Assembly (NCBI GenBank): GCA_964601865.1
Contig: CAZRPI010000001.1
Span: 4,625 to 68,624, forward strand
DNA: 64,000 nucleotides
Direction: 5' to 3'
Origin: an uncultured Pelobacter sp.
GTDB lineage: Bacteria; Desulfobacterota; Desulfuromonadia; Geobacterales; Pseudopelobacteraceae
Below the pieces are notes generated by a model. It searched no databases. It was not told the DNA's origin and saw only the letters and a program-made list of their open reading frames with translations. The translations under genes were made by a program, and so were the position numbers. Of the stretch, positions 14,324 through 62,722 are shown piece by piece; position 1 is the stretch's first letter; each line of letters begins with the position of its first letter.

Positions 14324-15628
14324 ATGAACATCCTCATTATCGGCAGTGACTATTTCTCTCTCGCAACCGACCCGGCCTACAGAACCGTGGTTCTCGGCCA
14401 GCCGGACGTTCTACGTCCCCCTCCCCCCACCCTGTCGTCACTACTACACCGGCACTGCCCGGAATTTTCACCGGATATCGTTCTCTATACCGATGAGAGC
14501 AAACTCCCGACCCTGACCGGACTGGAAGACCTGGAAATCCCCCTCTTCGGCTATCTCATCGACTCCCATATCCATTACGGCTGGCACCGCGAGTTCGCCG
14601 GAATGTTCGACCATGTTTTCGTCGCGCAAAGGGACTGCTGCGACAGCATAAACCGCCACACCGGCAACTGCGGCTGGTTGCCGCTCTTTGCGGCTCCGGA
14701 GCCGGCAGTCGCAGAAGAGGTGATCCATGATGTTTCATTCGTGGGGACCCTCGACAGGGGACTGAATCCCGACCGCGTATCCTTCATCGAATCACTGGCC
14801 CGCCTGGTGCCTCTCAATGTGCATTCCGGAGCTTTTTCCCGGATCTTCAGGCAGTCGAGGATCGTACTCAATCAATCGGTCAAAACGGATATCAATTTCA
14901 GGGTATTCGAGGCGCTGGCAAGCGGAAGTCTTCTCCTTACGGATAACGTCGACAACGGCATGAATGATCTGCTTGAAGAGGGGAAGCATTTCGTCAGCTA
15001 CAGAAAAAACGATCCCGAAGACGCGGCACGGAAAATCAGATATTTCCTCGAACACGAAGAAGAACGCCAAACCATCGCCCGGGCTGGGCATGAGGCCATG
15101 GTAACGAGGCATACGAAGGATATCCGCAGACGCCAGCTCATGAACGGGATTACCTCGCTCATCTCCGAGTGGGGTGGCAAAAATCCGGGGATCAGCCGGG
15201 AGCAGAGGCGTAACGCGGCGGCAAGAACCTATCTCATCGTGGCGCGCCTTGCAACCGACCTTAGGAGAGAATGCGGAATCCAGATTCCGGGGCGGGATGG
15301 CTACGTTGATCTTGCTGAAATATGCCTGCAGCGGATCAAGGACCATGGTAACATTGAGTTCGTCGTGCGTGACCTGGCCTGGATCAGCATCCTCAGAAAC
15401 AGACGTGATGCCGCAAAAGCGGCCTTAAGCGCAGCGATGCGCATGGGCGCGGCTGATGTCGAGACCTTTATCTGCGCGGCAGATCTCGCGTCCGATCAAA
15501 GGGAGGCGAAGGAACATCTGGCCACAGCAATGAACCTCCTGCAGGGCTATAGTGAGAGCGACCCGCTTTATTATGAATCCTGCTTTGATCAGTTGCTTCT
15601 GTTGGCAAAACGTACCGGCGCAATTTAA
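14324..15628 (+). CDS. CgeB-like glycosyltransferase (DUF3880 / Glyco_trans_1_2 type)
   Basis: Contains FRVFEALASGSLLLTDNVDNGMNDLLEEGKHFVSYRKNDPEDAARKIRYFLEHEEERQTIARAGHEAMVTRHT, the signature of the CgeB-type GT-B C-terminal domain. Confidence 0.7.
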   Translation: MNILIIGSDYFSLATDPAYRTVVLGQPDVLRPPPPTLSSLLHRHCPEFSPDIVLYTDESKLPTLTGLEDLEIPLFGYLIDSHIHYGWHREFAGMFDHVFVAQRDCCDSINRHTGNCGWLPLFAAPEPAVAEEVIHDVSFVGTLDRGLNPDRVSFIESLARLVPLNVHSGAFSRIFRQSRIVLNQSVKTDINFRVFEALASGSLLLTDNVDNGMNDLLEEGKHFVSYRKNDPEDAARKIRYFLEHEEERQTIARAGHEAMVTRHTKDIRRRQLMNGITSLISEWGGKNPGISREQRRNAAARTYLIVARLATDLRRECGIQIPGRDGYVDLAEICLQRIKDHGNIEFVVRDLAWISILRNRRDAAKAALSAAMRMGAADVETFICAADLASDQREAKEHLATAMNLLQGYSESDPLYYESCFDQLLLLAKRTGAI

Positions 15629-15859
15629 TCCCGTACCATGAAACTCCGCGTCTGAGGCATGTTCATTGCTTGAATCTATAGATTTTTATTTATCTGGCCT
15701 GTTTTTGACACACAGAGAGGAATACACGGTGAAAGTCAATCATTTCTGCCGTAGCAGCAAATCGGTTGTACCATGTTATTCCAGACGACCAAATTCTTCT
15801 GTACGCAACCCATAGACTGAATTGATATTAACCCTCATCAGCGTGGAGATTATCGGCTT

Positions 15860-24099: not shown

Positions 24100-25226
24100 A
24101 GGTAATCACCGTCGTTGGCACCCGCCCTGAAATAATAAAGCTCTCCCGGGTGATATCCGAGCTTGACCGGCACACCGAGCACATCCTGGTTCATACCGGC
24201 CAGAACTTCGACTACGAGCTGAACGAGATTTTCTTCCGGCAGCTCCAGGTCCGCAGACCCGATTATTTCCTGGGTGTCGCCGGAAAAACCGTTGCCGAAA
24301 CCATCGGCAACATCATTGCCCGTTCCGACGAAGTCTTTGCCAGGGAAGAACCGGATGCCATGCTGCTGCTGGGTGACACCAACAGTTCGCTCTCCGTGAT
24401 CCCCGCCAAACGGCGCAAGATTCCCATTTTTCACATGGAAGCCGGAAACCGCTGTTTCGACCTGAGGGTCCCCGAAGAGATCAACCGCAAGATCGTCGAC
24501 CACACAAGCGACATCAACCTGGTCTTTTCCGAACACGCCAGGCGCTATCTGATCGCGGAGGGAATACGCCCGGAAACCATCATCAAGACAGGCTCTCCGA
24601 TGCGTGAGGTGCTGGAGTATTACCTCCCGTCAATTGAGCGATCCCCCATACTGGAAGAGCTGCGACTCGAACCCGGCGGTTTTTTCGTCATCAGCGCGCA
24701 CCGCGAGGAAAACGTCGACAGCGAGCAGAACCTTTCGGACCTGCTGGCCTCCATTGACGCCCTGGCGGAGCATTATGGCCTACCGCTGATCGTCTCCACC
24801 CACCCCCGCACGAGAAAACGTCTCGACGAACGCGGGCTGGGCGCCGCCAACAAGCTGGTTAGCTTCCTCAAGCCGCTCGGATTCCTCGATTACGTCAAGC
24901 TGGAACTCAACGCGCGCTGTATCGTATCCGACAGCGGTACGATCACCGAAGAGGCTTCCATACTCGGCCTGCCGGCGGTCACCATCCGGCAGGCCCATGA
25001 ACGGCCGGAGGGAATGGACGAGGCCACCCTGATCATGTGCGGACTGAAGCCGGAAAGGGTACTGGAGGCGGTGGCAACGGTTGTCGCACATGCCGCGGGC
25101 GGCGGACGTCCTTTCAGAATGGCGCCTGATTACGAGGCGGACAACGTATCAAAAAAAGTTATGCGGATTATCATGAGTTATACCGATTATATAAACCGGA
25201 CGGTGTGGCGGAGGAATATGGCATAA
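24096..25226 (+). CDS. UDP-N-acetylglucosamine-type 2-epimerase, non-hydrolysing (FnlC/WbjD/WbvD-like)
   Basis: Begins MKVITVVGTRPEIIKLSRV...HTGQNFDYELNEIFF...GDTNSSLS...IPIFHMEAGNRCFD.RVPEEINRKIVDH. ATGA overlap with the upstream gene. Confidence 0.9.
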   Translation: MKVITVVGTRPEIIKLSRVISELDRHTEHILVHTGQNFDYELNEIFFRQLQVRRPDYFLGVAGKTVAETIGNIIARSDEVFAREEPDAMLLLGDTNSSLSVIPAKRRKIPIFHMEAGNRCFDLRVPEEINRKIVDHTSDINLVFSEHARRYLIAEGIRPETIIKTGSPMREVLEYYLPSIERSPILEELRLEPGGFFVISAHREENVDSEQNLSDLLASIDALAEHYGLPLIVSTHPRTRKRLDERGLGAANKLVSFLKPLGFLDYVKLELNARCIVSDSGTITEEASILGLPAVTIRQAHERPEGMDEATLIMCGLKPERVLEAVATVVAHAAGGGRPFRMAPDYEADNVSKKVMRIIMSYTDYINRTVWRRNMA

Positions 25227-26131
25227 TGAGCAATCTCAACATCAGACAGCAACTACCACCCATAACGCCCAAACCCGACCATAACTATGTGGCTTTTTTC
25301 CTCAGCCTTGCCTGCAACCTCAGATGCAACTACTGCATAAATCTGCACGACCATCTTTCCCGACCGGAACAGGCAAGACGCAACTCCATGTCCGCAGACG
25401 ACTGGATTACCGCGGCAAACCGCCTGTTATTACGCGCCGACCTGCCCCTCACGCTGCAGGGGGGCGAGCCGACCTTGCACCAGGGGTTCTACCGGATCGT
25501 CAATGAGGTCAGGCCTGAGATCAAAATGGACCTCATGACCAACCTGATGTTCGATGTTGATCGCTTCATCGCCAATGTCCCCACTTGGCGATTCACCCGG
25601 GATGCCCCTTACGCCGCCATCCGTGTCAGCTACCATCCGGGCCAGAACAACATCGACGACCTGATTGCAAAAACGCGGAAACTGGAAGACGCCGGATTCA
25701 GGATCGGACTATACGGCATCGAACACCCTGATCCCGAAATCCTGCGTCACGTCAGGGAAACTCAGGAACGCTGCCTCTCGCTTGGACTTGATTTCAGGAC
25801 AAAAGAGTACCTCGGAGAGCACTCGGGAAGGATGTACGGGACCTTCAAATATCCGGACTGCGTTAACAACTCCGAACTGAAGCGATGTCAGTGCCGGACC
25901 ACGGAGATCATTGCCGATCCGGCCGGATACGTTTACAAATGCCACGCCGATCTCTACAAAGGCCGGACACCCATCGCCCACATCCTGGACGACGCTTTTT
26001 CAGAAGAAACGATCGATGAATTCAGGGAATGTTCTTCCTACGGTGACTGCAATCCCTGTGATGTCAAGGTAAAGACCAACCGTTTCCAGATATTCGGACA
26101 TACCAGCGTGGAGATTCGCGACATTCAATGA
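25226..26131 (+). CDS. radical SAM protein (CNLRCNYC)
   Basis: CxxxCxxC at residues ~30-37, GGEPTL and a Cys-rich C-terminus (CQC...C...CSSYGDCNPC). TAATG overlap with the upstream gene. Confidence 0.8.
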   Translation: MSNLNIRQQLPPITPKPDHNYVAFFLSLACNLRCNYCINLHDHLSRPEQARRNSMSADDWITAANRLLLRADLPLTLQGGEPTLHQGFYRIVNEVRPEIKMDLMTNLMFDVDRFIANVPTWRFTRDAPYAAIRVSYHPGQNNIDDLIAKTRKLEDAGFRIGLYGIEHPDPEILRHVRETQERCLSLGLDFRTKEYLGEHSGRMYGTFKYPDCVNNSELKRCQCRTTEIIADPAGYVYKCHADLYKGRTPIAHILDDAFSEETIDEFRECSSYGDCNPCDVKVKTNRFQIFGHTSVEIRDIQ

Positions 26132-27195
26132 GAGCCTATAACTTTGACGGCCACAAACTGATCTACCATCCCGGGCGGGTTCATGAATTCCTGTCCCAGG
26201 GCGATTGTTTTCCGCTCTATATGGAAATCAGTCCCGTGGGCAGATGCAATCACCGATGCCTGTTCTGCGCCTATGACTTCATTGGATACCCGAATCGAAA
26301 GCTGGAAACCGACCTGATGCGCAAACTGTTGGAAGAGCTTGCAGCCACCGGTCTCAAAAGTGTCCTCTTCGCCGGGGAGGGTGAACCACTCCTGCACCCT
26401 GACCTGCCACACCTCGTGCAACATGCAAAAAGCAACGGAATAGATGTCGGCATCTTCACGAACGGACAGCTTCTGACCCCGGAAAAAGCGGAACGGATCA
26501 TTCCTTTCCTGACGTTCCTGCGCTTCAGCTTCAATGGCGGCACACGGGAAGTGTACGCCCGCGTCCATCAGGTTGACCCGAAAGCATACGATACCGTACT
26601 CGCGGCTCTTCACCAGGCAGTTGCCATAAAACATAAACATGGCGTGGCTACCACCATCGGCGTACAATTCGTAGTCATACCGGAAAACCTGTCGTCCCTC
26701 GTTGAAGCCGCGGCCGTGGTAAAATCGGCGGGGGCTGATTATTTTGCCATCAAACCTTTTGTGCATCAGAGTGACCGGCAAGGTTACCGGATGGATAAAC
26801 CACTCGACGCAGAACTTCTCGATGCCTGTCTGGCTGAAGTTGAAACGCTGAATAGCAAGAACTTCAAGGTCATGGCTCGAAGATCCGCCTTTTCCGAATA
26901 CGGTATCCGCCACTATTCCCACTGTTTCGGCACCTCGTTCATATCGGTAATCAATTCCGGCGGCGATGTTGCCTGCTGTCTCCCCTACTGGGATAACCCC
27001 GAATTCGTTTTCGGCAACATCCATGAGCAGTCATTTCGTGAGATCTGGCTGGGAGAACGGCGCAAAACCGTCAAAGCGCTCCTGGAGAAACGTCTCAACG
27101 TGCAGGATTGCCCCCCCAACTGCCGCCCCAATGCGATCAACGATTTTCTGTATGAGCTGAAATATCCGACCCTTGAGCACATAAACTTTATTTAA
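26128..27195 (+). CDS. radical SAM protein, paralogue group A (CNHRCLFC; C-terminus ...HINFI)
   Basis: Contains DGHKLIYHP...GRCNHRCLFCAY..., GEGEPLLHP, FTNG and C-terminal CPPNCRPNAINDFLYELKYPTLEHINFI. ATGA overlap with the upstream gene. Confidence 0.85.
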   Translation: MRAYNFDGHKLIYHPGRVHEFLSQGDCFPLYMEISPVGRCNHRCLFCAYDFIGYPNRKLETDLMRKLLEELAATGLKSVLFAGEGEPLLHPDLPHLVQHAKSNGIDVGIFTNGQLLTPEKAERIIPFLTFLRFSFNGGTREVYARVHQVDPKAYDTVLAALHQAVAIKHKHGVATTIGVQFVVIPENLSSLVEAAAVVKSAGADYFAIKPFVHQSDRQGYRMDKPLDAELLDACLAEVETLNSKNFKVMARRSAFSEYGIRHYSHCFGTSFISVINSGGDVACCLPYWDNPEFVFGNIHEQSFREIWLGERRKTVKALLEKRLNVQDCPPNCRPNAINDFLYELKYPTLEHINFI

Positions 27196-27205
27196 GGATA
27201 CGACG

Positions 27206-28159
27206 ATGCAGACAAAGATACTGATCATTAAGCTGGGTTATTCCGAAACGCTAGACCCGGAAATCGGCAAAGTCCCGAGCCTTGGTGATGTGTTGCGCAC
27301 AACACCCATTCTCTGGGCTCTGCGCGAAAAGTACCCTGACGCCCATATCAGCTGGCTGGTCTCGGAGCATGCCGAGCCGTTGCTGTATCGCAACAGCCAG
27401 ATTGACCGCCTTCTGGTCTGGGACAGCTTTGTCCCGTTTCAGTTGATGAAGGAAAAATTTGATGTACTGATAAACCTGGAAAAAATACCGGGCCTCTGCG
27501 CCCTGAGTGACATGATCGACGCCTGGGTCAAGTACGGTTTCCGCTTCGACTCTCTGTCCGGCAGCTACCACGCCTATGAAAAGGGGCTCGACTTCATAAG
27601 TTATATTGAAGGAAAGCATTCGGACAAGGCCAAAGGTTACTGGCAACAGGTGCTCATTGAAATGCTCGGCATTCCATGGAAGGGACAGGAGTATATCATC
27701 GGATACAAACCGGTGAGCACCGAAATCCATGACATCGGCCTCAACTTCGAAGTGGGCTCGAAATGGCCGGTCAAGGGGATGCCGATGGATCTCTGGCAGC
27801 GGCTGGAACAGCAACTGACTTCTCTCGGCTACAGCGTATCCTGGCAGGAGGGCCGCAAGAACCTCTTTGAATACATGGACTGGATCAATTCCTGCCGCCT
27901 GATAATATCCAATGACAGCCTGGGCCTGCACCTGGCCTTTGGCTTCCATAAAAAGGTGATCGGCCTGTTCGGCCCGACTGATCCAAGCGAGGTCTATTTC
28001 TACACCGGTGGCAAGCTGCTGCGCTCGCCATGCCAGTGCCCGGCCATGCCCTGCTTTGACGTCAAATGCCGCACCGGCCTGATGTGCATGTCGCACTTTG
28101 ATCTTGGCAAAATCATCACAGCCGTTGCGGAAATACGGGGAGAATCAAACACACCATGA
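27206..28159 (+). CDS. glycosyltransferase family 9 (heptosyltransferase-like)
   Basis: Contains KILIIKLGYSETLDPE...LGDVLRTTPILWALREKYPDAHISWLV and C-terminal ISNDSLGLHLA....VIGLFGPTDP. Confidence 0.85.
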   Translation: MQTKILIIKLGYSETLDPEIGKVPSLGDVLRTTPILWALREKYPDAHISWLVSEHAEPLLYRNSQIDRLLVWDSFVPFQLMKEKFDVLINLEKIPGLCALSDMIDAWVKYGFRFDSLSGSYHAYEKGLDFISYIEGKHSDKAKGYWQQVLIEMLGIPWKGQEYIIGYKPVSTEIHDIGLNFEVGSKWPVKGMPMDLWQRLEQQLTSLGYSVSWQEGRKNLFEYMDWINSCRLIISNDSLGLHLAFGFHKKVIGLFGPTDPSEVYFYTGGKLLRSPCQCPAMPCFDVKCRTGLMCMSHFDLGKIITAVAEIRGESNTP

Positions 28160-28938
28160 ACACACGAGAAACCGCGCTCCGCATCCGGCGCACCATAATC
28201 GAGATGGCCAATCGTTCCAAAAGCCCGCATGTCGGCTCCAGCCTCTCCTGCTCCGATATCATGGCGGTACTGTACGACGGCATCCTCAGACTGGAGCCAT
28301 GGGACGAGCGCGACATCTTCATCCTGAGCAAGGGGCACGCGGCCATGTCGCTGTACAGCACTCTGCACGCCAAAGGACTCCTGACGGCAGAGGATATCGA
28401 AGGTTACTACCTGGATAATGGCACCTTACCGGCACATCTTGATCGTCGTCCAGAAAAGGGGATAGAGGTGTCCGCAGGATCGCTGGGACACGGATTCAAC
28501 ATGGGTCTAGGCATGGCCTACGCATTCAAAAAGCAGAAGAGCTTTCGAAAAGTATTTGCGGTTATTGGCGACGGTGAAGCACAAGAGGGCTCCATCTGGG
28601 AAGGAGCCCTGTTCGCAGGCAGGTTCGGGTTGGAAAACTTCACCGCAATCATGGATAACAACAACCTTCAGGGATACGGCCGGCCAAGCGAAATCTGCGC
28701 CTTTGAACCGATGAGGGACAAGTGGATCTCGTTCGGATGGCATGCCATTGAAGTCGATGGACATGACCACGATGAGTTGCGCAACGCCCTACGGGCGGAA
28801 TCGCGCGGAAAACCAAAGATCCTGATTGCCCGCACCATCAAAGGAAAGGGAGTCTCTTTCATGGAAGACCAGCTGATCTGGCATTACTACATTGTCACCG
28901 ACGAACACAAACGGCAAGCTTTGGATGAGCTGTCATGA
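28156..28938 (+). CDS. transketolase, N-terminal (ThDP-binding) subunit
   Basis: Contains HVGSSLSCSDI..., LSKGHAA, GSLGHGFNMGLGMA and GDGEAQEGSIWEGA (ThDP motif GDG...E). 260 aa split form. Confidence 0.9.
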   Translation: MNTRETALRIRRTIIEMANRSKSPHVGSSLSCSDIMAVLYDGILRLEPWDERDIFILSKGHAAMSLYSTLHAKGLLTAEDIEGYYLDNGTLPAHLDRRPEKGIEVSAGSLGHGFNMGLGMAYAFKKQKSFRKVFAVIGDGEAQEGSIWEGALFAGRFGLENFTAIMDNNNLQGYGRPSEICAFEPMRDKWISFGWHAIEVDGHDHDELRNALRAESRGKPKILIARTIKGKGVSFMEDQLIWHYYIVTDEHKRQALDELS

Positions 28939-29855
28939 GGAACTCCTTCATCAATACCATTCTCGATGCCTGCAGACAACGGGAGGACATCTTTGTCATC
29001 AGCGGCGACGCCGGCCTGGGTGTATTTGACACCTTCAAGGAGGAATACCCTGACCGTTTCCTCAACCTGGGAGCCGCCGAACAGAACATGATCAGTTTTG
29101 CCGCCGGGATGTCCATGACCGGCTACAAGGTGCTTGTTTACAACATCATACCTTTTGTCCTTTACCGCTGCTACGAGCAGGTGCGTAACGATATCTGTTA
29201 TCAGGACCTGCCGATTATTCTGGCCGGCATCGGCAGTGGACTGACCTATTCACCCCAGGGAATGACCCACTACTCCATAGAAGATCTGAGCCTCGCCCGT
29301 ACACTCCCGAACCTGACCGTCTTGTCCCCAATTGACCCTGTTGAGGCAAGAGTGGCAGCCAATTATGCCCTATCCGCAGCCGCACCGGTATATGTCAGGC
29401 TTGCCAAGCGTGGCGAACCGGATATCCACACGACACAACAGCTTGATATAAGCGTGCCGCAACAACTGGTCACGGGCGATATTCCGGTCGCCCTTCTCTG
29501 TCATGGTTCCATTGGGGAGGAGGTTCTGCAAGCGGCCCGGATACTGTCCGAAGATGGCATCAGGCCCTTCGTGTTTTCGGTGCCAATGGTACAGCCACTC
29601 AATCGTGACACTTTACTCAGTTGCCTGAAAGGGATGCGGTCAGTGGTTTCGGTTGAAGAGCATTATCATTCCTGCGGCCTGGGCGCGGCCGTGAGGGAAA
29701 GTATCATGGACTCCTCTCTATCCTGCTCTCTCACCACCTTGGGATTACCATCCCGTTTCATCCATGAAGTCCACGACACGGCAGGAATGAGAAAACTGTT
29801 CGGGATTGATGCCGATTCGATTGCTTCTACTGTCAGATCGCAGTTGAGAGGTTGA
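28935..29855 (+). CDS. transketolase, C-terminal (pyrimidine-binding) subunit
   Basis: Contains GDAGLGVFDTFKEEYPDRFLNLGAAEQNMISFAAGM... and HYSIEDLSL.RTLPNLTVLSP.D. ATGA overlap with the N-terminal subunit. Confidence 0.9.
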   Translation: MRNSFINTILDACRQREDIFVISGDAGLGVFDTFKEEYPDRFLNLGAAEQNMISFAAGMSMTGYKVLVYNIIPFVLYRCYEQVRNDICYQDLPIILAGIGSGLTYSPQGMTHYSIEDLSLARTLPNLTVLSPIDPVEARVAANYALSAAAPVYVRLAKRGEPDIHTTQQLDISVPQQLVTGDIPVALLCHGSIGEEVLQAARILSEDGIRPFVFSVPMVQPLNRDTLLSCLKGMRSVVSVEEHYHSCGLGAAVRESIMDSSLSCSLTTLGLPSRFIHEVHDTAGMRKLFGIDADSIASTVRSQLRG

Positions 29856-29857
29856 AC

Positions 29858-30520
29858 ATGGGAAAATTAAGAAATTATTTTACGCCTCTTCATACCAGTA
29901 CGAAACGTGACTATCTCTCACGCATGTGTGATGCCAAAGTCGAGTGCATGCGAGTTGCCAAAAGATACGGGTCTGAGTTCTGGGATGGTGAGCGGCGGTA
30001 CGGATATGGAGGCTTCAAGTATGACGGCAGATGGAAACCGGTCGCCGAACGTTTAATCGAAGATTACGGACTGGCCGGGAACTGCTCGATCCTTGACATA
30101 GGTTGCGGCAAGGGATTCCTGTTGTATGAACTCCATCAGTTACTACCGGAAGCACGTATTGCCGGGTTTGATATTTCAGAGTATGCCATCAACAACGCGA
30201 AGGATGAGATCCGTCACAACATCTTCCTGCACCGGGCTCAGGATCCGCTTCCCTATAAAGATCATGAGTTCGACCTGGCTATCTCGCTTACCACCCTCCA
30301 CAATCTGCACCTGCCAGACCTGAAGGCCGCCCTGATGGAAATGGAACGGGTCGGCAGGCAGAAATATCTGGTTGTGGAGGGATACCGGAATGAGGAAGAG
30401 CTGTTTAACCTGCAGTGCTGGGCGCTGACCTGCGCCGCCTTCTTCACACCAGAGGAATGGATGTGGCTGTTTGGCCAGTTTGGTTACAGCGGGGACTACG
30501 AGTTTGTGTATTTCGACTGA
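29858..30520 (+). CDS. class I SAM-dependent methyltransferase
   Basis: Motif I is ILDIGCGKGFLL. Also GFDISEYAINNAK and DLAISLTTLHNL. Confidence 0.85.
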   Translation: MGKLRNYFTPLHTSTKRDYLSRMCDAKVECMRVAKRYGSEFWDGERRYGYGGFKYDGRWKPVAERLIEDYGLAGNCSILDIGCGKGFLLYELHQLLPEARIAGFDISEYAINNAKDEIRHNIFLHRAQDPLPYKDHEFDLAISLTTLHNLHLPDLKAALMEMERVGRQKYLVVEGYRNEEELFNLQCWALTCAAFFTPEEWMWLFGQFGYSGDYEFVYFD

Positions 30521-30538
30521 TCGTTCCAGGAGAGAGTA

Positions 30539-31609
30539 ATGGGGTTGCTCTACACCCGCATGAAAATATTCCACTTCAACGCCAAGCTTGATTCACTCCA
30601 GCCAAGTTCCGGGGGTATCCTTCCGCCGCTCAACGTACGCATCAAACCGACCAATGCCTGCAACCATAACTGCTGGTATTGCGCCTACCGTGCGGAAAAT
30701 CTGCAACTTGGACAGGATATGAACCAGAAGGATTCCATACCGCGGGACAAGATGCTGGAGATCATCGATGATCTGATGGCAATGGAAGTGAAGGCGGTTA
30801 CCTTCAGCGGCGGGGGCGACCCGTTCTGTTATCCGCACCTGTTGGAAACGGTGCAAAAACTGGCCGCAACTCCGATCAAATTTGCCGCGCTTACTAATGG
30901 TTCACGCCTGACCGGCGAAGTCGCGGAAGTTTTTGCCAAACACGCCACCTGGTTGCGAGTCTCCATGGACGGCTGGGACAACGCCAGCTACCGTGAGTAC
31001 CGCGGATGTTCCGATGGGGAGTTCACCAACATCATCCGCAATATGGAACAGTTCAAAAAAATTGGTGGGAAGTGTTATCTGGGAGTCTGTATCGTTGTTG
31101 ATAACAATAACTACGAGCATATCTACGATTTGATCCAACTCCTGCACGCAACCGGAGTCAACAGCGTCAAGGTCTCACCCTGCATCGTCAGCAACAGTTG
31201 TGACGACAATTATAACTACCACGTTCCGCTTTTTGATTCGGTAAAAGAGCAGACCCTGCGGGCACAGCAGGAGTTCACCGGGGAAGGCTTTGAACTGTAT
31301 GATGCCTACCATTACCAACTGGGAACATTTGCCAAAGATTATTCATGGTGTCCCTACCTTCAGATTGTCCCGGTCATCGGCGCCGACCTGAATATCTACT
31401 CTTGCCACGACAAGGCATACAACCTTGCGGAAGGATTGCTGGGTTCAATCACAGACACACGGTTCCGTGATTTCTGGTTCTCCGACAAGAGGCGGTTTTA
31501 CCGAATTAATCCGAGACGAGACTGCAACCATCATTGTGTTGTTGACAGCAATAATCGTATGGTTCTGGAATATCTGAATGTTGACGAAAACCATCGGGAG
31601 TTTTTGTAA
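30539..31609 (+). CDS. radical SAM protein, paralogue group A-like (CNHNCWYC; C-terminus ...HREFL)
   Basis: Contains KPTNACNHNCWYCAY, FSGGGDPF, LTNG and a C-terminal CNHHCVVDSNNRMVLEYLNVDENHREFL. AGGAGAG lies upstream of the ATG. Confidence 0.85.
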   Translation: MGLLYTRMKIFHFNAKLDSLQPSSGGILPPLNVRIKPTNACNHNCWYCAYRAENLQLGQDMNQKDSIPRDKMLEIIDDLMAMEVKAVTFSGGGDPFCYPHLLETVQKLAATPIKFAALTNGSRLTGEVAEVFAKHATWLRVSMDGWDNASYREYRGCSDGEFTNIIRNMEQFKKIGGKCYLGVCIVVDNNNYEHIYDLIQLLHATGVNSVKVSPCIVSNSCDDNYNYHVPLFDSVKEQTLRAQQEFTGEGFELYDAYHYQLGTFAKDYSWCPYLQIVPVIGADLNIYSCHDKAYNLAEGLLGSITDTRFRDFWFSDKRRFYRINPRRDCNHHCVVDSNNRMVLEYLNVDENHREFL

Positions 31610-31612
31610 TCA

Positions 31613-33575: not shown

Positions 33576-33586
33576 GAGTATGCATA

Positions 33587-34243: not shown

Positions 34244-34247
34244 GCCG

Positions 34248-38346: not shown

Positions 38347-38353
38347 TAACGCC

Positions 38354-40989: not shown

Positions 40990-41040
40990 AAACAAGAAAC
41001 CACCAGATTTAACAGCAACTCCGCACAGGGAACTACTGCA

Positions 41041-45000: not shown

Positions 45001-47021
45001 GCAAGAGCAACGTCAAGTGGCTTGAATATTCGGCGTGCGGCATTGCCGGGATATACGCCGACCTGCCTCCGTACAATAGCTGCATAACGCAGGGAGAAAC
45101 CGGGATCCTGGTCGGAAACACGCCCCAGCAATGGTTCAGCGCCATTGACCTTCTGGTCAGGAATCCGGAACTGCGCCGCTCCATCGCCCGAAAAGCCCGC
45201 CAGAAGGTGATGTCGGACTGCACGCTCAAATCCGGGGCGCAGCGCTGGCTTGAGGTTTACCGGGACATTGCGGCAAAGGCTGGCGACAAACGGGACACCG
45301 CCCCAGCCGCGAAGCGTTCCGCCAGAGTGTCCATCATCATCCCGGCCTTCAACCAGCTCCCCTTTACCAGGCAGTGCCTTGATGGGCTCTTCGCCACGCT
45401 GCCCGACACCACTCCCTGTGAAATCATCGTGGTGGACAACGGCTCCACCGACGGAACCCCGGAGTATCTGCGCAACATGGCCGACCGGGTGACAACGGTT
45501 AGCAACCGTGAGAACCTGGGATTCGCCAGGGCATGCAACCAGGGTGCCCGGACCGCATCCGGCGACATACTGCTGTTTCTCAACAACGATACCATACCCA
45601 GGCCGGCGTGGCTCGAGGCGCTGCTTTCCCCCATCGACGGCAACGAGGCCGACATCTGCGGCGCACGCCTGCTCTACCCGGATGGCCGCTGCCAGCACGC
45701 CGGCATCGCCTTTGACGAACGGGGCCTGGGCTATCATATCTTCTGTGGTTTCCCCGGCGATGCGGCGCCGGTGGTTGAGCGCCGCCGGATGCAGGCCGTA
45801 ACCGGAGCCTGCATGGCCATACGAAAGAGCCTGTTTCATGAGCTGGGAGGATTCGACGAAGGGTTCCTCAACGGCTTCGAGGACGTGGATCTCTGCCTGC
45901 GGGCAGGAGAAGGGGGCCGACGCATTCTGTTTGTTCCCGAAAGCGTTCTGGTACACCACACCGAACGGAGCAGCGGACGCAAAGACCATGAGATTGAAAA
46001 CCTGCAGCGATTCTTCTCGCGCTGGCTGGACAGGATACGCCAGGACGACACCCCCCTCTACGCCCGTTTCGGCCTGGAAAGCCGCAGGGAACCGGATGGA
46101 AGCCTGAAGGTATACCCGGTCGACGGGAATGTGCCTCCGGTTTCCATCATCATTCCGTTATACAGCAGAGTCGAACTGACGCGGGCCTGTCTGCTAGCCC
46201 TGGAACGCTCTACTGACAGAGGCTGTTATGAACTGGTTCTGGTCGATAACGGTTCCAGTGATGGCACCAGCAATCTGCTGCGGGAATGGGAGTCAAAGGC
46301 GGTCATCATCCGCAACCCCGAGAACCGAGGCTTCGCTGCCGCCTGCAACCAGGGGGCTCGGGCTGCCCGGGGGAAATACCTGCTGTTCCTGAACAATGAT
46401 ACCGAGGTAACCGACGGCTGGCTCAAATCGCTGACAGCCATCCTGGACGATGATCCAACGGTAGCTGCCGTGGGCGCCAAACTCCTGTTTCCCGACGGCA
46501 CAGTCCAGCACGCCGGTATCATGATAGTCGATGACAGAGCAAAAGGAGATCCGCTGGTGGGGAGAAATCATCTTTCCAGTGTTCCCGGTGATCACCCTTA
46601 TGCCAACAAACTGATGCGCATGCAGGCGGTAACGGCGGCCTGTGTCCTGATACGGCGAACGGCATTCGAAGCGGTGGGAGGATTTGACGAGGGGTACTGG
46701 AATGGGTATGAGGATCTTGACCTCTGCTTCAGGTTCGGCGAACAGGAATGGAAAATCGTCTATCAACCGGCCAGCGTGATAATACATCACGAATCCAAAT
46801 CGGGACCCGAACGTTATCTGCGCGCCAAAGACAATATAAGGCGACTGCACGAGCGATGGCTTGGCAGGATAAGGCCCGACATGATCATCATGCCGGATAC
46901 GCGGGTAATCGAGGGCGCCGCTATGCTGGAAGGCCCAACCGGGACCTATGAGCCTCACACTGGTTCGCGGAGCCCCTTTCACCGAGCGTATCAGAACGCT
47001 CCAGCGGGTAAAACGGAATGA
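42042..47021 (+). CDS. 1659-aa penta-domain glycosyltransferase (GT2 - GT4 - GT-B-like - GT2 - GT2)
   Basis: Residues 6-215 hold FSVIVPTYNQ...VNDGSSDDT...SSDDLF. Residues 380-705 hold STSWQEGFGLPGLEAMACGIPLVTTDSGG. Residues 740-1075 are GT-B-like. Residues 1095-1335 hold VSIIIPAFNQ...VVDNGSTDGT...FLNNDT. Residues 1366-1610 hold VSIIIPLYSR...LVDNGSSDGT...FLNNDT. Confidence 0.9.
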   Translation: MAISPPVFSVIVPTYNQANFLPAALDSLLAQTYSNWEAVIVNDGSSDDTPRVMEDYAARDSRFILVHKPNGGVASALNAGLRHARGEWICWLSSDDLFEPDKLAIHRQAILENPRIRFFYSHFYYLNDATGEKTASGLWQPIPEPAFQVSRFFVSPYIHGNSIAVHRTAFDKVGHFDEQNRCGQDFDMWLRISAQFESRFVDSRTCVTRFHEGQSGNVFPEAGFFDSSRACALFLNANDFSGIFPLLDLTSIDNALLAVQEILTIAFDGDALIYKCSPTPALLERLREWLVKPENLPVRNAITPWLHRTYDSITTSNLPDSIKQATANLLRNDRFTYSSHDFMAETALYAEWLRKAGKRGEAEKLERYLAETTKQKKDGKLRITVITPGTDLSGGVKVIFEYCNRLAKRGHTINLATMCGDYPGWFRLEPTVNFIKSDYDPQRLINDLPEADVVIATLWLTAYAVNNLPPDKGAKYYLVQSYESETLTTPEYADPTYKLPLRKLAVSSWLAQLMRDRFDEEAVLIRNAYDSEIFYPESLIRRDYPGDQIRVGMLYYPEERKGGADGITAFMLAREKHPDMKLILFGHRPTIPVTFDEIHENISGDDVRRYYNSLDLFMSTSWQEGFGLPGLEAMACGIPLVTTDSGGVRDYAINGETALVTPPRNPEAIADALIRLIDNGNLRERLRQNGLAKAAEFSWDASVTALETVLLEERTKPDSCGMPFDADTNVLRGRPSPSKPIKIAVFSLDAKDHACGHYRIQAPFRVLTCDVELSWGIEFRDNTYHAVPGAAEAADIIVVQRFFPRPETAEALEYLYSLDKPLIFEIDDLIIRLPETNPHRNWGDQSAPHILELVRKCSAITVSTEELKKYFSQYNATVHVLPNLLDEDLWHRTVPPSAGPVVIGYAGTATHGTDLALLEDVLGRIASQYESRVAFTFMGCATEKISRLPGFSYIPFETTFAAYAGKLQETPVDIMLVPLEDNEFNRCKSNVKWLEYSACGIAGIYADLPPYNSCITQGETGILVGNTPQQWFSAIDLLVRNPELRRSIARKARQKVMSDCTLKSGAQRWLEVYRDIAAKAGDKRDTAPAAKRSARVSIIIPAFNQLPFTRQCLDGLFATLPDTTPCEIIVVDNGSTDGTPEYLRNMADRVTTVSNRENLGFARACNQGARTASGDILLFLNNDTIPRPAWLEALLSPIDGNEADICGARLLYPDGRCQHAGIAFDERGLGYHIFCGFPGDAAPVVERRRMQAVTGACMAIRKSLFHELGGFDEGFLNGFEDVDLCLRAGEGGRRILFVPESVLVHHTERSSGRKDHEIENLQRFFSRWLDRIRQDDTPLYARFGLESRREPDGSLKVYPVDGNVPPVSIIIPLYSRVELTRACLLALERSTDRGCYELVLVDNGSSDGTSNLLREWESKAVIIRNPENRGFAAACNQGARAARGKYLLFLNNDTEVTDGWLKSLTAILDDDPTVAAVGAKLLFPDGTVQHAGIMIVDDRAKGDPLVGRNHLSSVPGDHPYANKLMRMQAVTAACVLIRRTAFEAVGGFDEGYWNGYEDLDLCFRFGEQEWKIVYQPASVIIHHESKSGPERYLRAKDNIRRLHERWLGRIRPDMIIMPDTRVIEGAAMLEGPTGTYEPHTGSRSPFHRAYQNAPAGKTE

Positions 47022-49051
47022 ACTCCACCCAAACCTTTCGCCCACTCGTTTCCGCGATCGTATCCGTCTACAGGGCAGAACGCTTCATTCGGGGCTGCCT
47101 GGAGGACCTCGTCGGTCAGACGCTCTTTCAAAAGGGTCAGCTGGAAATCATCGTTATCAACAGCGGCTCTCACGAAAATGAAGGAACCATAACGGAGGAA
47201 TACACTGCCCGCTACCCTTCCCGGGTCAGGTACATCCGCACGGAAGAACGGGAGACCATCTATCGGGCCTGGAACCGTGGCATAGAAGCGGCAGGCGGCA
47301 CATATGTAACAAATGCCAATGCCGATGACCGTCATCGCCCCGATGGACTGGAGGTCATGACGACTTGTCTGGACCGGAACCCCGAAATTGCTCTGGTCTA
47401 TGCCGATTGTGATGTGACGACCGTCGAGAATGGGCGGTTTGGCGAGACGCCAATCGTTGCCCGTTTCAAATGGCCGGACTTTGACCCGGTACAGCTCTTC
47501 CGGATCTGCTATATCGGCCCCCAACCCATGTGGCGACGCTCTCTCCACAGGCGGCACGGTCTGTTCGATCCGACCTGCCGTTCCGCCGGAGACTACGAAT
47601 TCTGGCTGCGCCTGGCAGCCGCGGGTGAGCGTTTTCTCCATATTCCCGAGACCCTGGGTCTGTACCTCCAGTCTCCCGGTGGGGTAGAGCATGCCAACCA
47701 GAGACTCTCCTGGGAAGAGTCAAGCCGGGCACGAACGAAGCACTGGCCGATGTCGTGGGGGACGCTCCCTTCACCATCGGGAAATTACCTGTTCCCGGTA
47801 AGCGCCAGCAGGCAGAATGGTTCATCACCCCTGGTCTCGGTCATCATCCCCACCCGCAACCGCCCGGAATTCCTGGCCCGCGCCATTCAAAGCGTCCTGA
47901 ACCAGACCTACAAAAATATTGAAATCATCGTAATCAACGACGGTGGCATCGATGTCGGAGAACTTACCGCCCATTTCAACAGCCGGAGAAACATCCGTTA
48001 TATCAATCTGCCCACAGGAATTGAACGTTCGGCCGCCCGCAATCTCGGCATCAGGGCGGCACATGGAATCTACATTGCCTACCTGGATGACGACGACCGA
48101 TATCTTCCGGAGCACGTTGCAACACTGGTGAGGCATGCACAGGAAACGGGATGCCGCGTTGTCTACTCCGATGCCTACCGGGTCGAGCTTGACCCGTCAA
48201 CAGGCCTCCCGGATGAAACCAGACGCGACATTCCCTATTCACTCGACTTTGATCCGGTCCGACTCCATGTGGAAAACTACATTCCGATCCTCTGCCTCAT
48301 GCATGAGCGATCCTGCCTGGATGAGACCGGCATGTTCGACGAACAGCTGTCGCGACTGGAAGACTGGGACCTGTGGCTCAGGCTATCCCGGGTAGCGCGG
48401 TTTCACCACATACCCCAGGCGACCTGTGAATTTACCTGGCACCACGGAGGAAGCTCTCAGACTCTGAACAATGCCCCGCTCTTTCTCAATGCCTACAAAA
48501 CCATCTGCAAAAAGCATCCCGGCGCGGCACGGGAAAATGCATCCATACGGCTCTGGCAGCAGAGCAACATTTTCGTCAAAACATGCCAGACTTTTGAATA
48601 TCTGAAGCAGCTTCTGGAACCATCGTGCCGGGGCAACCGTGCTCTGCCATCAATTTCTCCCGAAACCATCGGAACATTGCTTACGCATGGAATTGACTCA
48701 AAAAGACTCGAATCAACCCTCTGCTGGACCAAATCATTCTTCGAGGATGAAAACCTCATCGAGTCCTGGCTTGACAGGGCGCTCACCGCGGATGAAGAAA
48801 ACCACCCGGCAAGGATGCGTTTAGTCACTTTACTTATGCGCCAGAAAAGAACCCTGACAGCTTTAGCGCATCTGGAAATACTGCACCTCCACCATCCCAC
48901 GGACATCCCGATCATCAGCGAACTGGCCAGCTTATATGCGAATTCGATGGGCAACAGGCAAAAAACCGCGGATATACTCAACAAGGGATTATGGCTGTAT
49001 CCCGGCAATGAAACTCTCCGGGATCAATTGAAAAAGATACTGAACCGGTAA
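47018..49051 (+). CDS. 677-aa double-GT2 glycosyltransferase with helical-repeat C-terminus
   Basis: Contains VSAIVSVYRAERF...NSGSHENEG...NADDRH and VSVIIPTRNRPEF...VINDGG...LDDDDRY. ATGA overlap with the upstream gene. Confidence 0.88.
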   Translation: MNSTQTFRPLVSAIVSVYRAERFIRGCLEDLVGQTLFQKGQLEIIVINSGSHENEGTITEEYTARYPSRVRYIRTEERETIYRAWNRGIEAAGGTYVTNANADDRHRPDGLEVMTTCLDRNPEIALVYADCDVTTVENGRFGETPIVARFKWPDFDPVQLFRICYIGPQPMWRRSLHRRHGLFDPTCRSAGDYEFWLRLAAAGERFLHIPETLGLYLQSPGGVEHANQRLSWEESSRARTKHWPMSWGTLPSPSGNYLFPVSASRQNGSSPLVSVIIPTRNRPEFLARAIQSVLNQTYKNIEIIVINDGGIDVGELTAHFNSRRNIRYINLPTGIERSAARNLGIRAAHGIYIAYLDDDDRYLPEHVATLVRHAQETGCRVVYSDAYRVELDPSTGLPDETRRDIPYSLDFDPVRLHVENYIPILCLMHERSCLDETGMFDEQLSRLEDWDLWLRLSRVARFHHIPQATCEFTWHHGGSSQTLNNAPLFLNAYKTICKKHPGAARENASIRLWQQSNIFVKTCQTFEYLKQLLEPSCRGNRALPSISPETIGTLLTHGIDSKRLESTLCWTKSFFEDENLIESWLDRALTADEENHPARMRLVTLLMRQKRTLTALAHLEILHLHHPTDIPIISELASLYANSMGNRQKTADILNKGLWLYPGNETLRDQLKKILNR

Positions 49052-56383: not shown

Positions 56384-56407
56384 GGTGTTGCTCCTTTCTG
56401 GATTTCT

Positions 56408-56423
56408 GTGGCATTCTTGCCAC
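56408..56423 (-). promoter_or_regulatory. 5'-UTR stem-loop of flagellin mRNA (candidate FlbT target)
   Basis: GUGGCA-AGAA-UGCCAC is a perfect 6-bp inverted repeat. It lies between the predicted sigma-28 -10 element and the AGGAG Shine-Dalgarno. Confidence 0.4.
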
Positions 56424-56440
56424 TACATTTGTTATTTAGA

Positions 56441-56467
56441 GTATCGGTTGAATCGGGAAGAGCTTTA
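56441..56467 (-). promoter_or_regulatory. sigma-28 (FliA) promoter of flagellin
   Basis: The minus strand reads TAAAGCTC-N11-ACCGATAC against the consensus TAAAGTTT-N11-GCCGATAA. It lies about 60 nt upstream of the ATG. Confidence 0.65.
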
Positions 56468-56497
56468 ATTTTTTTCTACTCCCCTGCACACCAATGA

Positions 56498-61459: not shown

Positions 61460-61516
61460 AGAAAAATAGCATAAACTGCTATCTCATGACGATTTAATTC
61501 GCACGGGAGAGATGTC

Positions 61517-62722
61517 ATGGGCACATGGGATTACCTTTCAGACGGTTCAAGCGGCGCATCCAAACTATTGTCGGCCATAACCACCGCTCAGACCACCTAC
61601 CGGCAAAGCGCCGCCAACAGCGCCCTTTCCGCCGGACTGACCCAGTACCAGAACGGCAATTACAAGGCTGCCGCCGCTTCGTTCCGGCTTTCGACAGCAT
61701 TCCAGCCGGACAACACCGATGCCTATAACTATCTCGCCAAGGCCGACCTTAAGCTGGGAAAGAAAAAAGAAGCTATCAATGCCTACAAAATCTCCCTGGA
61801 GCTTGACAGCACCCAGGGAGATACCTATGTCGATCTTGCCGGCGTATACATGGATGACAAGAATTACACCGAGGCGGAAAAGGTGTTGAAACTGGGGAGC
61901 CAGAAGGATCCCACGAACGCCCTGCCGATCTATACCCTGGGACTGCTGCAGCTCAACAATCTGGACAAACCGAAGGAGGCTAAGGAATCATTCAAGAAAA
62001 CCATCAGGTTATCGCCCAACGACGGCAACGCCTATTACGGCCTGGGCGCCGCCCTGAGCAAGGAGGGCAACTATGACCAGGCCGTCACCCAGCTGAAAAA
62101 GGCCCTGTCGCTGAACAAGGATTCAGCCGCGACGATGTATGAACTGGGAAACACCTATGCGGCACTCGGAAAAACCGATGACGTAAAAACGATGATCAGC
62201 AAACTGGAGGACCTGGATACGTCCGAGGCTTCCACCATGGCAAGCAATCTGCAGATAAGCATCAACCAGCCCAAGATAGTCGGCATGAACAGCGACAAGA
62301 GCTCGTTCAACGCCTCTCTGGGAACGGTGTCGCTCCTTGCCGTTGATCCTTCCTTCGTTACTCCTTCGACGAGCAAGACATTTTCCATGACTTTCAAGTT
62401 TGATTCCGAGATGGATGCCAAATCGGTCACCAACATCGCCAACTGGACGGTGGGGCGTTCAAAGGGGGCGGTCGCGGGATTATACGACAACGGCCTTTAC
62501 CGGGCCACGGACCGGGGGGGTACGGTAGTGGCGACAAAGGTAACCTACAATCCCACAACCCACGAGGCCACGGTTTACTTTCCCATATCCCAGAACAGCG
62601 ACGGAACCGGGACTATCGACGCGAGCCACCTGACATTCACGTTCAAGGGCACCGACGCCAACGGCAAAAAAATGGACTCTTCGGCCGATCAATACAATGG
62701 CTCCGTGGGAGAGCCCTTCTAA
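61517..62722 (+). CDS. TPR-repeat protein with C-terminal beta-rich (Ig-like) domain
   Basis: Four to five TPRs (YNYLAKADLKLGKKKEAINAYKISLELD..., YYGLGAALSKEGNYDQAVTQLKKALSLN). The C-terminal ~150 aa are beta-rich. GGGAGAG RBS. Confidence 0.8.
   Translation: MGTWDYLSDGSSGASKLLSAITTAQTTYRQSAANSALSAGLTQYQNGNYKAAAASFRLSTAFQPDNTDAYNYLAKADLKLGKKKEAINAYKISLELDSTQGDTYVDLAGVYMDDKNYTEAEKVLKLGSQKDPTNALPIYTLGLLQLNNLDKPKEAKESFKKTIRLSPNDGNAYYGLGAALSKEGNYDQAVTQLKKALSLNKDSAATMYELGNTYAALGKTDDVKTMISKLEDLDTSEASTMASNLQISINQPKIVGMNSDKSSFNASLGTVSLLAVDPSFVTPSTSKTFSMTFKFDSEMDAKSVTNIANWTVGRSKGAVAGLYDNGLYRATDRGGTVVATKVTYNPTTHEATVYFPISQNSDGTGTIDASHLTFTFKGTDANGKKMDSSADQYNGSVGEPF

Follow-up and report, generated by a model that had tools for sequence, protein, structure and literature searches.

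The 64-kb stretch of DNA analyzed here in its entirety (hereafter the window) comes from an uncultured bacterium of the Desulfuromonadota assigned to Pelobacter, and most of it is taken up by an island of 36 genes (14324-62722) in which the flagellin gene fliC lies among genes for glycosyltransferases (GTs), sugar-modifying enzymes and proteins with tetratricopeptide repeats (TPRs). Gene content was taken from an open reading frame (ORF) listing with Pfam and NCBIfam profile scans that covered every plausible ORF of the window, Pfam also being run on domain-sized segments of the large multi-GT proteins. All window proteins were compared by tblastn with 83 related loci. Of the loci named below, L001 is from the same organism, L165 from Trichlorobacter ammonificans and L164 from an Acidobacteria metagenome-assembled genome (MAG); the genome sequence in view amounts to ~70 kb on one contig. 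Twenty-nine of the 36 genes run head-to-tail on the plus strand (14324-53979), with gaps of mostly 0-35 bp or overlaps (the largest being 232, 278 and 165 bp), and are followed by a convergent minus-strand set encoding FlaF, FlbT, a 200-aa protein and flagellin, and then by TPR-GT41 (+), TPR-GT9x2 (-) and the TPR protein TPR401 (+). The proteins are singletons at 90% identity. Coordinates are collected in Table 1, and genes are referred to below by their first position.

Table 1 Features of the window, from left to right, followed by GT domain counts (rSAM, radical S-adenosylmethionine (SAM) enzyme; MT, methyltransferase; MFS, major facilitator superfamily; NDP, nucleoside diphosphate).
Feature	Position	Strand	Details
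Left flank	1-14323		MFS/acyltransferase, GGDEF, PALP, MotB/MotD-like OmpA, Smr, Omp85, histidine kinase and sigma-54 response regulator
Histidine kinase	11267-12718	+	Left anchor of the island
Sigma-54-dependent response regulator	12737-14134	+	NtrC/FlbD/FlgR-type matches, below equivalog cut-offs
CgeB-like, PF13524	14324-15628	+	GT-B; 82.9 bits
CgeB-like, PF13524	15860-18628	+	922 aa; GT-B; 126.6 bits; flanking SAM-methyltransferase domains
NDP-hexose 4,6-dehydratase	18645-19661	+	PF01370/PF16363; RmlB/LegB-like NCBIfam matches below cut-offs
DegT/PseC-type aminotransferase	19582-20784	+	PF01041, 396.6 bits; PseC/DesI-like NCBIfam matches below cut-offs
GT8-like	20711-21850	+	PF01501, 21.9 bits, under the gathering score of 24.3
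RmlD-like reductase	22128-23051	+	Pfam
PseB/FnlA-type UDP-GlcNAc 4,6-dehydratase	22984-24099	+	PseB 294.7 and FnlA 257.6 bits, both below cut-off
WecB-type non-hydrolyzing 2-epimerase	23892-25226	+	NCBIfam WecB 224.5 bits (cut-off 210)
Radical-SAM cassette (putatively sugar-tailoring)	25205..39451	+	~14 kb; Pfam families
Cassette genes, first part	25205, 26128, 27206, 28156 + 28935	+	rSAM1, rSAM2-SPASM, GT9, split transketolase
Cassette genes, second part	29852, 30539, 31613, 32484, 33587	+	MT1, rSAM3-SPASM, RmlD2, rSAM4-SPASM, MT2
Cassette genes, third part	34173, 34655, 36163, 37348, 38354	+	NUDIX, B12-rSAM, rSAM6-SPASM/twitch, GT-A-fold orphan, FkbM methyltransferase
GT-A-fold orphan (predicted)	37348-38346	+	332 aa; no Pfam match; model pLDDT 93.8
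TPR + GT-B (GT9-like fold, predicted)	39616-40989	+	457 aa; Pfam, TPR only; model pLDDT 90.8
Methyltransf_24 protein	41041-42036	+	Pfam
Multi-GT polypeptides	42042..49051	+	1659 aa (GT2, GT-B/GT4, GT-B, GT2, GT2) and 677 aa (GT2, GT2)
TPR358	49128-50204	+	Pfam TPR
GT2x3-TPR	50176-53979	+	1267 aa; Pfam
FlaF	54027-54407	-	NCBIfam 139.6 against a cut-off of 91
FlbT	54400-54792	-	PF07378 and PF07309 for FlbT and FlaF (Pfam)
200-aa protein, unknown family	54797-55399	-	Between FlbT and fliC
fliC (flagellin)	55478-56383	-	301 aa; PF00669/PF00700
fliC control region	56384..56497	-	Sigma-28-type promoter, hairpin, Shine-Dalgarno
TPR + GT41	56498-58417	+	Divergent from fliC; PF13844, 191.6 bits (gathering score 25)
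TPR-GT9-TPR-GT9 (TPR-GT9x2)	58402-61374	-	990 aa; PF01075 at residues ~336-406 and ~901-934
TPR401	61517-62722	+	Pfam TPR only; right edge of the island
Right flank			TrxB, CN-hydrolase; in relatives then TolQRA/TolB
GT2 domains, n = 8	three in 42042, two in 47018, three in 50176		Pfam
GT9 domains, n = 3	one in 27206, two in 58402		Pfam
GT-B/GT4 domains, n = 2	both in 42042		Pfam
GT41 domain, n = 1	56498		Pfam

The flagellin gene is flanked on both sides by GT genes, with GT2x3-TPR ending at 53979 and TPR-GT41 starting at 56498, and TPRs are joined to GT domains in four architectures within the island (TPR-GT41, TPR-GT9x2, GT2x3-TPR and TPR-GT9-like). The 56498 protein is, judged by its sequence, a true member of the GT41 family with a conserved catalytic lysine. 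Its whole catalytic region is matched by the GT41 enzymes SPINDLY (a plant O-fucosyltransferase), OGT, TtOGT and XcOGT (E = 2e-112 to 6e-50); among solved structures the closest are SPINDLY (7y4i, E = 2e-112) and TtOGT (5djs, 3e-97), alongside human OGT and XcOGT, with HMW1C-type enzymes matched more distantly. It shares with this family the TPR-then-GT-B layout and the catalytic lysine of the FNNxxK motif, K453 aligning with the catalytic K341 of TtOGT (the lysine that is mutated in the K341M structure). We know of no characterized GT41 flagellin transferase. The solved relatives that the protein matches (SPINDLY, OGT, HMW1C-type) are protein-modifying cytoplasmic glycosyltransferases. TPR-GT41 is the prime candidate for the flagellin O-glycosyltransferase. 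In the previously described systems, the TPR arrays of FlmG and Maf-1 have been shown to bind flagellin (PMC7591256; 10.1101/2023.12.03.569772). Both enzymes are cytoplasmic and draw on soluble donors (PMC7591256; 10.1101/2022.03.25.485807; 10.1101/2023.12.03.569772), and in Clostridium flagellin GTs are already predicted from the combination of TPR with GT2 (PMC13317340).

The linkage between the GT genes and flagellin is conserved in relatives (L002, L004, L005, L165), while the left block of the island varies. The nearest genome, a MAG of an uncultured Pelobacter (identity of GT2x3-TPR 67%, FliC 83% and FlaF 91%), is followed by GCA_003575165.1 and then by MAGs of Geobacteraceae, Syntrophaceae, Desulfobacterales and Nitrospirae; an alphaproteobacterial origin, which the presence of FlaF and FlbT might have suggested, is rejected because of these nearest genomes. 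Among the close relatives L002, L004 and L005, the core comprising TPR358 and GT2x3-TPR, FlaF-FlbT-200aa-fliC, TPR-GT41, TPR-GT9x2 and TPR401 is syntenic at 64-92% protein identity; the pair of TPR358 and GT2x3-TPR is 67-73% identical and the 990-aa TPR-GT9x2 64-70% identical in these three loci. The position of GT2x3-TPR immediately upstream of FlaF-FlbT-fliC recurs, down to 33-44% identity, in ~20 loci that belong to Geobacteraceae, Syntrophaceae, Desulfobacterales, Nitrospirae and Thermodesulfovibrionales. The gene for TrxB follows TPR401 in the window and in L002, L005 and L165, the L004 contig ending before this point.

The GT41 gene is next to fliC in L002, L004, L005 and L165 and ~2 kb from it in L007, so that its orthologues keep the fliC neighborhood down to 44-49% identity (divergent in L165, ~2 kb away in L007). 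Such a fixed place suggests an enzyme dedicated to one substrate rather than to many. A general protein O-glycosylation system, in which the TPR-GTs, and GT41 above all, would modify a number of cytoplasmic or secreted proteins such as pilins, cytochrome filaments and chemotaxis proteins, and flagellin would be one client or none, seems to us quite improbable. GT41 enzymes elsewhere are multi-substrate, a cyanobacterial Ogt modifies pilin (PMC9306852), and there are >7000 bacterial GT41-TPR homologues, most of them probably not beside flagellin; yet this orthologue group stays near fliC across the divergence just described, and a sigma-28-type promoter precedes the neighboring TPR401 (see below).

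A minimal version of the locus is present in the cultured T. ammonificans (OW150024.1:2914283-2936211), where it consists of fliC, TPR-GT41, a methyltransferase, a CgeB-like GT, TPR-GT47, a TPR protein, a FlaF paralogue and TrxB. The slot of TPR-GT9x2 is filled there by a TPR protein with an Exostosin/GT47 domain (L165 13781-16162, -), GT47 being a mostly eukaryotic family, and by sequence the catalytic domain is swapped (GT9x2 vs GT47) on a kept TPR scaffold. The FlaF paralogue, at L165 17500-17871, is the second one in T. ammonificans.

Ser and Thr together account for 25% of the flagellin and are densely clustered at residues 150-240. FlaF and FlbT, for the most part known as flagellin regulators of alphaproteobacteria, here adjoin short flagellins in MAGs of Desulfuromonadota, Syntrophia, Desulfobacterota and Nitrospirota (L005-L030). 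The 200-aa protein between FlbT and fliC matches no Pfam or NCBIfam family and is conserved at that place in relatives, at 46-57% identity and, in loci further removed, at 29-39%. It may act as a chaperone for flagellin or, in analogy to GlfM, as an adaptor for glycosylation. Upstream of fliC, a sigma-28-type promoter (TAAAG-N-CCGATA, 56441-56467) is conserved in L002, L004 and L005, and the 5' untranslated region (UTR) contains the hairpin GTGGCAAGAATGCCAC (56408-56423) followed by the Shine-Dalgarno region AATCCAGAAAGGAGCAACAC. The exact 16-mer GTGGCAAGAATGCCAC occurs once each in L001, L002, L003, L004 and L005, in every case upstream of fliC, and L007, at 44-64% protein identity, has a variant with few changes (GCGGCAAGAATGCCGT). 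The hairpin, of modest predicted stability (-11.1 kcal/mol, z = -2.0), is a candidate site for translational control by FlbT/FlaF. A second sigma-28-like promoter (TCAAGT-N15-CCGATA, 61433-61459, +), likewise conserved in L002, L004 and L005, precedes TPR401, which suggests that TPR401 is a late flagellar gene; no family was matched by its C-terminal ~160 residues. A scan for sigma-54 promoters gave 34 matches against 34 expected by chance, and scans of the island for sigma-70 promoters and terminators were also at chance level.

No polytopic membrane protein was found among the 36 island proteins by a Kyte-Doolittle 19-residue scan for transmembrane (TM) segments. Each protein had at most one marginal hydrophobic segment (three marginal matches in all, scoring 1.68-1.79, one of them a Rossmann beta1 strand), while positive controls in the flanks gave 11 segments for an MFS-acyltransferase, six for a MASE8-GGDEF protein and two for the histidine kinase. 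Neither the profiles nor the TM scan detected Wzx, Wzy, Wzz, Wzm/Wzt, KpsMT, WecA/WbaP or WaaL/ligase proteins in the island or the visible flanks, and an oligosaccharyltransferase of the PglL/PglB type is likewise absent from both, the island having no membrane protein. An earlier note, written from the sequence alone, had described the island as free of export, polymerization and lipid-carrier genes and its proteins as soluble, and both statements hold in these scans; the contiguous export or priming genes that it proposed to look for were found in neither of the visible flanks. A 637-aa ORF with 11 TM segments (1902-3815, -) was considered as a flippase and rejected, as it is an MFS + acyltransferase protein (an LplT/Aas-like lysophospholipid transporter-acyltransferase) 10 kb outside the island; the 764-aa ORF on the opposite strand has no family match and is probably not a gene.

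These results bear on the possibility that the island is an O-antigen, capsule or exopolysaccharide locus of the ABC-transporter type, making a polymer on a lipid primer with the primer transferase and exporter encoded elsewhere. Soluble GT2/GT4 polymerases with several domains typically occur where O-antigen synthesis depends on an ABC transporter, GT9 is the classical family of lipopolysaccharide (LPS) heptosyltransferases, and our view is limited to one contig of the genome. Against this stand the absence of Wzm/Wzt, KpsMT, WecA/WbaP, WaaL or any suitable polytopic protein in the window or beyond its right end, the linkage to fliC that is conserved across phyla, and the presence of GT41 and of TPR fusions, which are hallmarks of protein glycosylation, and we judge a polysaccharide locus to be very unlikely.

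The sigma-54 regulator gene that precedes the island is found, 80% identical, directly before the sugar block in L130, and homologues lie near fliC in L010, L012, L018 and L029. Further to the left (7836-9054, +), a CheY-like receiver is followed by a coiled-coil OmpA-domain protein with best matches to MotD/MotB; homologues occur near flagellin loci in L008, L010, L031, L049, L064 and L069, and the left flank is thus motility-related too.

In total, the island encodes 19 GT domains in 11 proteins, 17 of them recognized by Pfam and two by predicted fold only. The earlier tally by family (two CgeB, one GT8-like, three GT9, eight GT2, two GT4/GT-B and one GT41) was reproduced by Pfam, the GT8-like match being sub-threshold, and its round figure of ~20 domains was fair. 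An acidic DxD-type motif is kept in all eight GT2 domains, the multi-GT polypeptides at 42042..49051 have no TM segments, and the 15860-18628 protein carries Methyltransf_11/25 matches over residues 734-876. The two proteins without a Pfam GT match, 37348 and 39616, were modelled from alignments of their few homologues. The 332-aa 37348 orphan is confidently predicted from its model to adopt a GT-A fold: a sequence search of the Protein Data Bank (PDB) gave no match, while the fold search found resemblance to SpsA, ColGalT1 and LARGE1. Its family is very rare, only 20 proteins having reached E <= 1e-5 when candidates drawn from ~5.8 billion sequences were scored, and W10, G11, N31, D50, D110 and H176 are invariant. 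The C-terminal ~330 residues of 39616 form a GT-B domain in the model, closest in the fold search to WaaF (1psw, TMt 0.57), WaaC and 3tov, and the whole model matches OGT/SPY (SPINDLY) architectures; the further possible GT9 that had been suggested is probably this domain, with its likeness to the GT9 enzymes WaaF/WaaC.

The 39616 C-terminal domain belongs to a stand-alone family without a Pfam model, which has 39 homologues, most of them lacking TPRs. BLASTP of this domain and of TPR401 against the GT9 protein returned TPR similarity only, and a PDB sequence search with the GT9 domain of the 990-aa protein gave no match. In L164, a 39616-type domain ends an NDP-sugar operon with a transketolase, TylC3-like C-methyltransferases, an HldE-like kinase/adenylyltransferase and a nucleotidyltransferase. 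Taken with the four GT9-like domains of the island, this operon context hints at heptose-like or chain-extended sugars.

The nucleotide-sugar genes of the island are co-clustered and encode a 4,6-dehydratase, a DegT enzyme, a PseB/FnlA-like enzyme, WecB and two RmlD-like reductases. From these annotations, the 18645 dehydratase and the 19582 aminotransferase would make a sugar of the NDP-4-amino-4,6-dideoxyhexose type, and the genes at 22128-25226 would provide an FnlABC-like route to a 2-acetamido-2,6-dideoxyhexose. At least six methyltransferase domains are present in the island (Pfam). These genes are followed by a ~14-kb cassette with six radical-SAM genes (four with SPASM/twitch domains and one B12-dependent), a split transketolase, methyltransferases and a GT9. 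The earlier description of every ORF as a GT, a sugar enzyme, a methyltransferase, a TPR protein or flagellin with its regulators passes over the six radical-SAM proteins, the split transketolase, the NUDIX protein and the conserved 200-aa protein.

None of the radical-SAM, transketolase or NUDIX proteins of the cassette attains an NCBIfam cut-off. The best PDB sequence relatives are BlsE, DesII and BtrN for rSAM2 and rSAM3, and AprD4 followed by TokK for the B12-rSAM protein, and the similarity to these solved sugar-acting relatives is remote (E = 1e-6 to 1e-16). Most characterized SPASM enzymes are peptide maturases, and the weak NCBIfam matches here include PapB, SkfB, PqqE and MftC types, so that action on a peptide or protein, either flagellin or the precursor of a ribosomally synthesized and post-translationally modified peptide (RiPP), could be imagined in place of action on sugars. 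This we find scarcely credible, as all of the maturase matches are far below their cut-offs, the best solved relatives are sugar-acting, and the enzymes are interleaved with a short-chain dehydrogenase/reductase (SDR), transketolase, GT9 and NUDIX genes; there is also no room for a RiPP precursor gene, because gaps within 25205-39451 are 35 bp or less.

The same argument is strengthened by gene fusions in relatives. In the Pelobacter MAG, B12-binding, radical-SAM and three GT2 domains are fused in a polypeptide of 1365 aa (L005 4628-8725, +) that is encoded directly upstream of TPR358, GT2x3-TPR and fliC, with a separate 551-aa B12-rSAM gene just upstream of the fusion. A 1337-aa polypeptide of the same make-up is encoded in L002 (1-2353, +), and GCA_003575165.1 carries the same kind of fusion. 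With both activities in one polypeptide, the link between radical chemistry and glycan transfer would be hard-wired in these relatives, and no other observation points as strongly to the glycan as the target of that chemistry.

The cassette is a widespread, uncharacterized module. A metagenome scan with rSAM3 as the query retrieved 80 loci at 49-80% identity, in which the MT1 + rSAM3 pair occurs together 62 times, the transketolase pair in ~30 loci and the B12-rSAM gene in 30, with polytopic ORFs in only four. Full cassette gene order is kept in L130 and in a 57-kb contig carrying P0131. It is possible, though on balance somewhat doubtful, that the cassette builds an undescribed radical-tailored, C-methylated or branched and possibly chain-extended sugar that is put on flagellin in the cytoplasm.

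The left ~28 kb of the island, which include this module, are a variable, low-GC cassette. GC content falls to 0.39-0.50 at ~36-42 kb, as compared with ~0.58 elsewhere in the window, and is lowest within the island at 39616..42036; the genes 36163-40989 are at 0.39-0.45, and the drop points to a recent horizontal acquisition of that stretch. In L004, a 75%-identical homologue of 20711 lies directly before the GT2x2 gene and ~25 kb (22128-47018) is missing. In L130 the 14324-21850 genes are absent, and the cassette comes after the sigma-54 regulator. From the GC dips and the missing or variable left genes, the island is a mosaic. Glycosylation islands typically show both of these traits, a variable content and dips in GC.

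The two halves of the island might also differ in function. The core (~49128-62722) would then serve flagellin, and the left block (14324-47021) would merely share the hypervariable locus and work on another target, be it a further glycoprotein, a soluble glycoconjugate or a small molecule. In L002, L004 and L005 the left block is missing or differs, and it has a lower GC content; the cassette is moreover self-contained and found in many unrelated contigs, sometimes with more radical-SAM, kinase and 6PGD genes in a manner resembling secondary metabolism, with no flagellin within 10 kb of the metagenome cassette loci (although the window's own fliC is itself 25 kb off). However, 29 co-oriented and near-gapless genes lead straight into the pair of TPR358 and GT2x3-TPR, L130 has the same cassette in the same slot after the sigma-54 regulator, cassette-less relatives still have the B12-radical-SAM fused to GT2 beside fliC, and the block is without a polyketide synthase, a non-ribosomal peptide synthetase, a cyclitol pathway or an exporter. 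A split in function is for these reasons unlikely.

We therefore favor, with a probability of roughly 0.6, the interpretation that the island as a whole serves flagellin glycosylation in this uncultured member of the Desulfuromonadota, with flagellin being O-glycosylated sequentially in the cytoplasm. The earlier note had also arrived at cytoplasmic glycosylation of flagellin, which is supported by the fliC synteny, the GT41 protein with its catalytic lysine, the TPR fusions, the sigma-28-type promoters and the lack of lipid-carrier or export machinery. Several points weigh against it. The left half (14324-42036) is tied to fliC by co-location and co-orientation only, and the cassette homologues in metagenomes lack a flagellin at close range, as noted above. 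The 19 GT domains far exceed the need of any characterized flagellin glycan, and glycans must fit through the narrow flagellar export channel. No gene of the island encodes a nucleotidyltransferase or kinase by which a newly made sugar could be activated, and the search for exporters spans ~70 kb of genome, so that exporters may be encoded elsewhere. Finally, our literature search found no paper on flagellin glycosylation in Desulfuromonadota or Geobacter-type bacteria, nor one linking radical SAM with flagellin glycosylation.

In the mechanism that we propose for such an island, cytoplasmic island enzymes would turn housekeeping nucleotide sugars into unusual donors, namely a 4-amino-4,6-dideoxyhexose, a 2-acetamido-2,6-dideoxyhexose (FnlABC-like) and at least one sugar heavily tailored by the radical-SAM/transketolase/methyltransferase cassette, the tailoring probably including C- or O-methylation, deoxygenation or epimerization, and two-carbon extension or branching. 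TPR-GT41, TPR-GT9x2, GT2x3-TPR and the TPR-GT9-like protein may dock via their TPRs on unfolded or chaperone-free flagellin and initiate O-linked glycans within its Ser/Thr-rich central part (residues ~150-240); the remaining ~10 GT domains would then lengthen these glycans sugar by sugar. FlaF and the type III export apparatus of the flagellum would receive the modified flagellin, whose translation may be coupled to export by FlbT and FlaF through the conserved 5'-UTR hairpin. Such a scheme would do without a lipid carrier, a flippase or an oligosaccharyltransferase.

The proposed system shares features with several that are already described. It resembles FlmG of Caulobacter crescentus and Brevundimonas, which is soluble with an N-terminal TPR and a C-terminal GT-B (PMC7591256; 10.1101/2022.03.25.485807), a layout that is found without TM segments in 56498 (GT41) and, by fold, in 39616; the short (~275-300 aa) flagellins under FlaF/FlbT and the use of a soluble nucleotide-sugar donor with no lipid carrier are also alike. 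FlmG transfers pseudaminic or legionaminic acid, in contrast to what may be expected here: no NeuB/PseI/LegI synthase or cytidine monophosphate-nonulosonic acid (CMP-NulO) synthetase was found by Pfam in the 36 island proteins or the scanned flank proteins of this contig. FlmG is further reported as confined to Caulobacterales (10.1101/2023.12.03.569772), unlike the present system with its Desulfuromonadota host, four TPR-GT architectures and 19 GT domains. The hypervariable sugar, methyltransferase and GT genes beside flagellin recall the Maf islands of Campylobacter, Helicobacter, Aeromonas, Shewanella, Clostridium and Geobacillus (PMC4065374, PMC13317340, PMC5109656), as do the proposed cytoplasmic O-glycosylation before type III export and, with Maf-1, the proposed use of a TPR domain for acceptor recognition. 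No MAF_flag10/DUF115 Pfam match was found in any ORF of the window. Geobacillus flagellin islands measure 0.9-30.4 kb and have at most five GTs (PMC5109656), as compared with 48 kb and 19 GT domains here.

Pseudomonas flagellin islands make viosamine-based glycans and encode Fgt1/Fgt2 and OrfA-N, and Listeria GmaR is a GT2 joined to TPRs. Judged by description, the present island is similar to the former in its dehydratase and aminotransferase for a 4-amino-4,6-dideoxyhexose and in its sequential cytoplasmic GTs, and to the latter in the fusion of GT2 to TPR in a flagellin GT, whereas the number of GTs is far smaller in those systems, which also lack radical-SAM chemistry and belong to another lineage. 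The radical-SAM enzymes, the B12 radical-SAM methylase, the split thiamine diphosphate (ThDP) two-carbon transferase, the SDRs and the methyltransferases are reminiscent of sugar tailoring in antibiotic pathways (aminoglycoside, nucleoside and orthosomycin), to which the matched enzymes BlsE, DesII, BtrN, AprD4 and TokK belong and where GenK, AviX12 and AviB1/B2 are comparable radical-SAM and ThDP enzymes; in contrast to those pathways, the cassette here sits in a probable protein-glycosylation island and not in an antibiotic cluster.

Flagellin glycosylation islands as such are well known, and what is new here is the host lineage, the four TPR-GT architectures including GT41, the 19 GT domains and the radical-SAM cassette. 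If our interpretation is true, cytoplasmic flagellin O-glycosylation, so far not described from Desulfuromonadota, Nitrospirota and related anaerobes, would extend to these groups, and a third architectural class of candidate flagellin GTs (TPR combined with GT41, GT9, GT2x3 or GT47) would stand beside Maf and FlmG. A widespread radical-SAM/transketolase/methyltransferase cassette would be tied to glycan tailoring, and if its sugar is indeed placed on flagellin, this would be the first radical-SAM-dependent protein-glycan pathway. The minimal locus in the cultured T. ammonificans makes the core prediction directly testable, and the B12-radical-SAM-GT2 fusion proteins offer a defined starting point for enzymology. 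Hypervariable islands of this kind probably shape how flagella are recognized by phages and predators in sediments.

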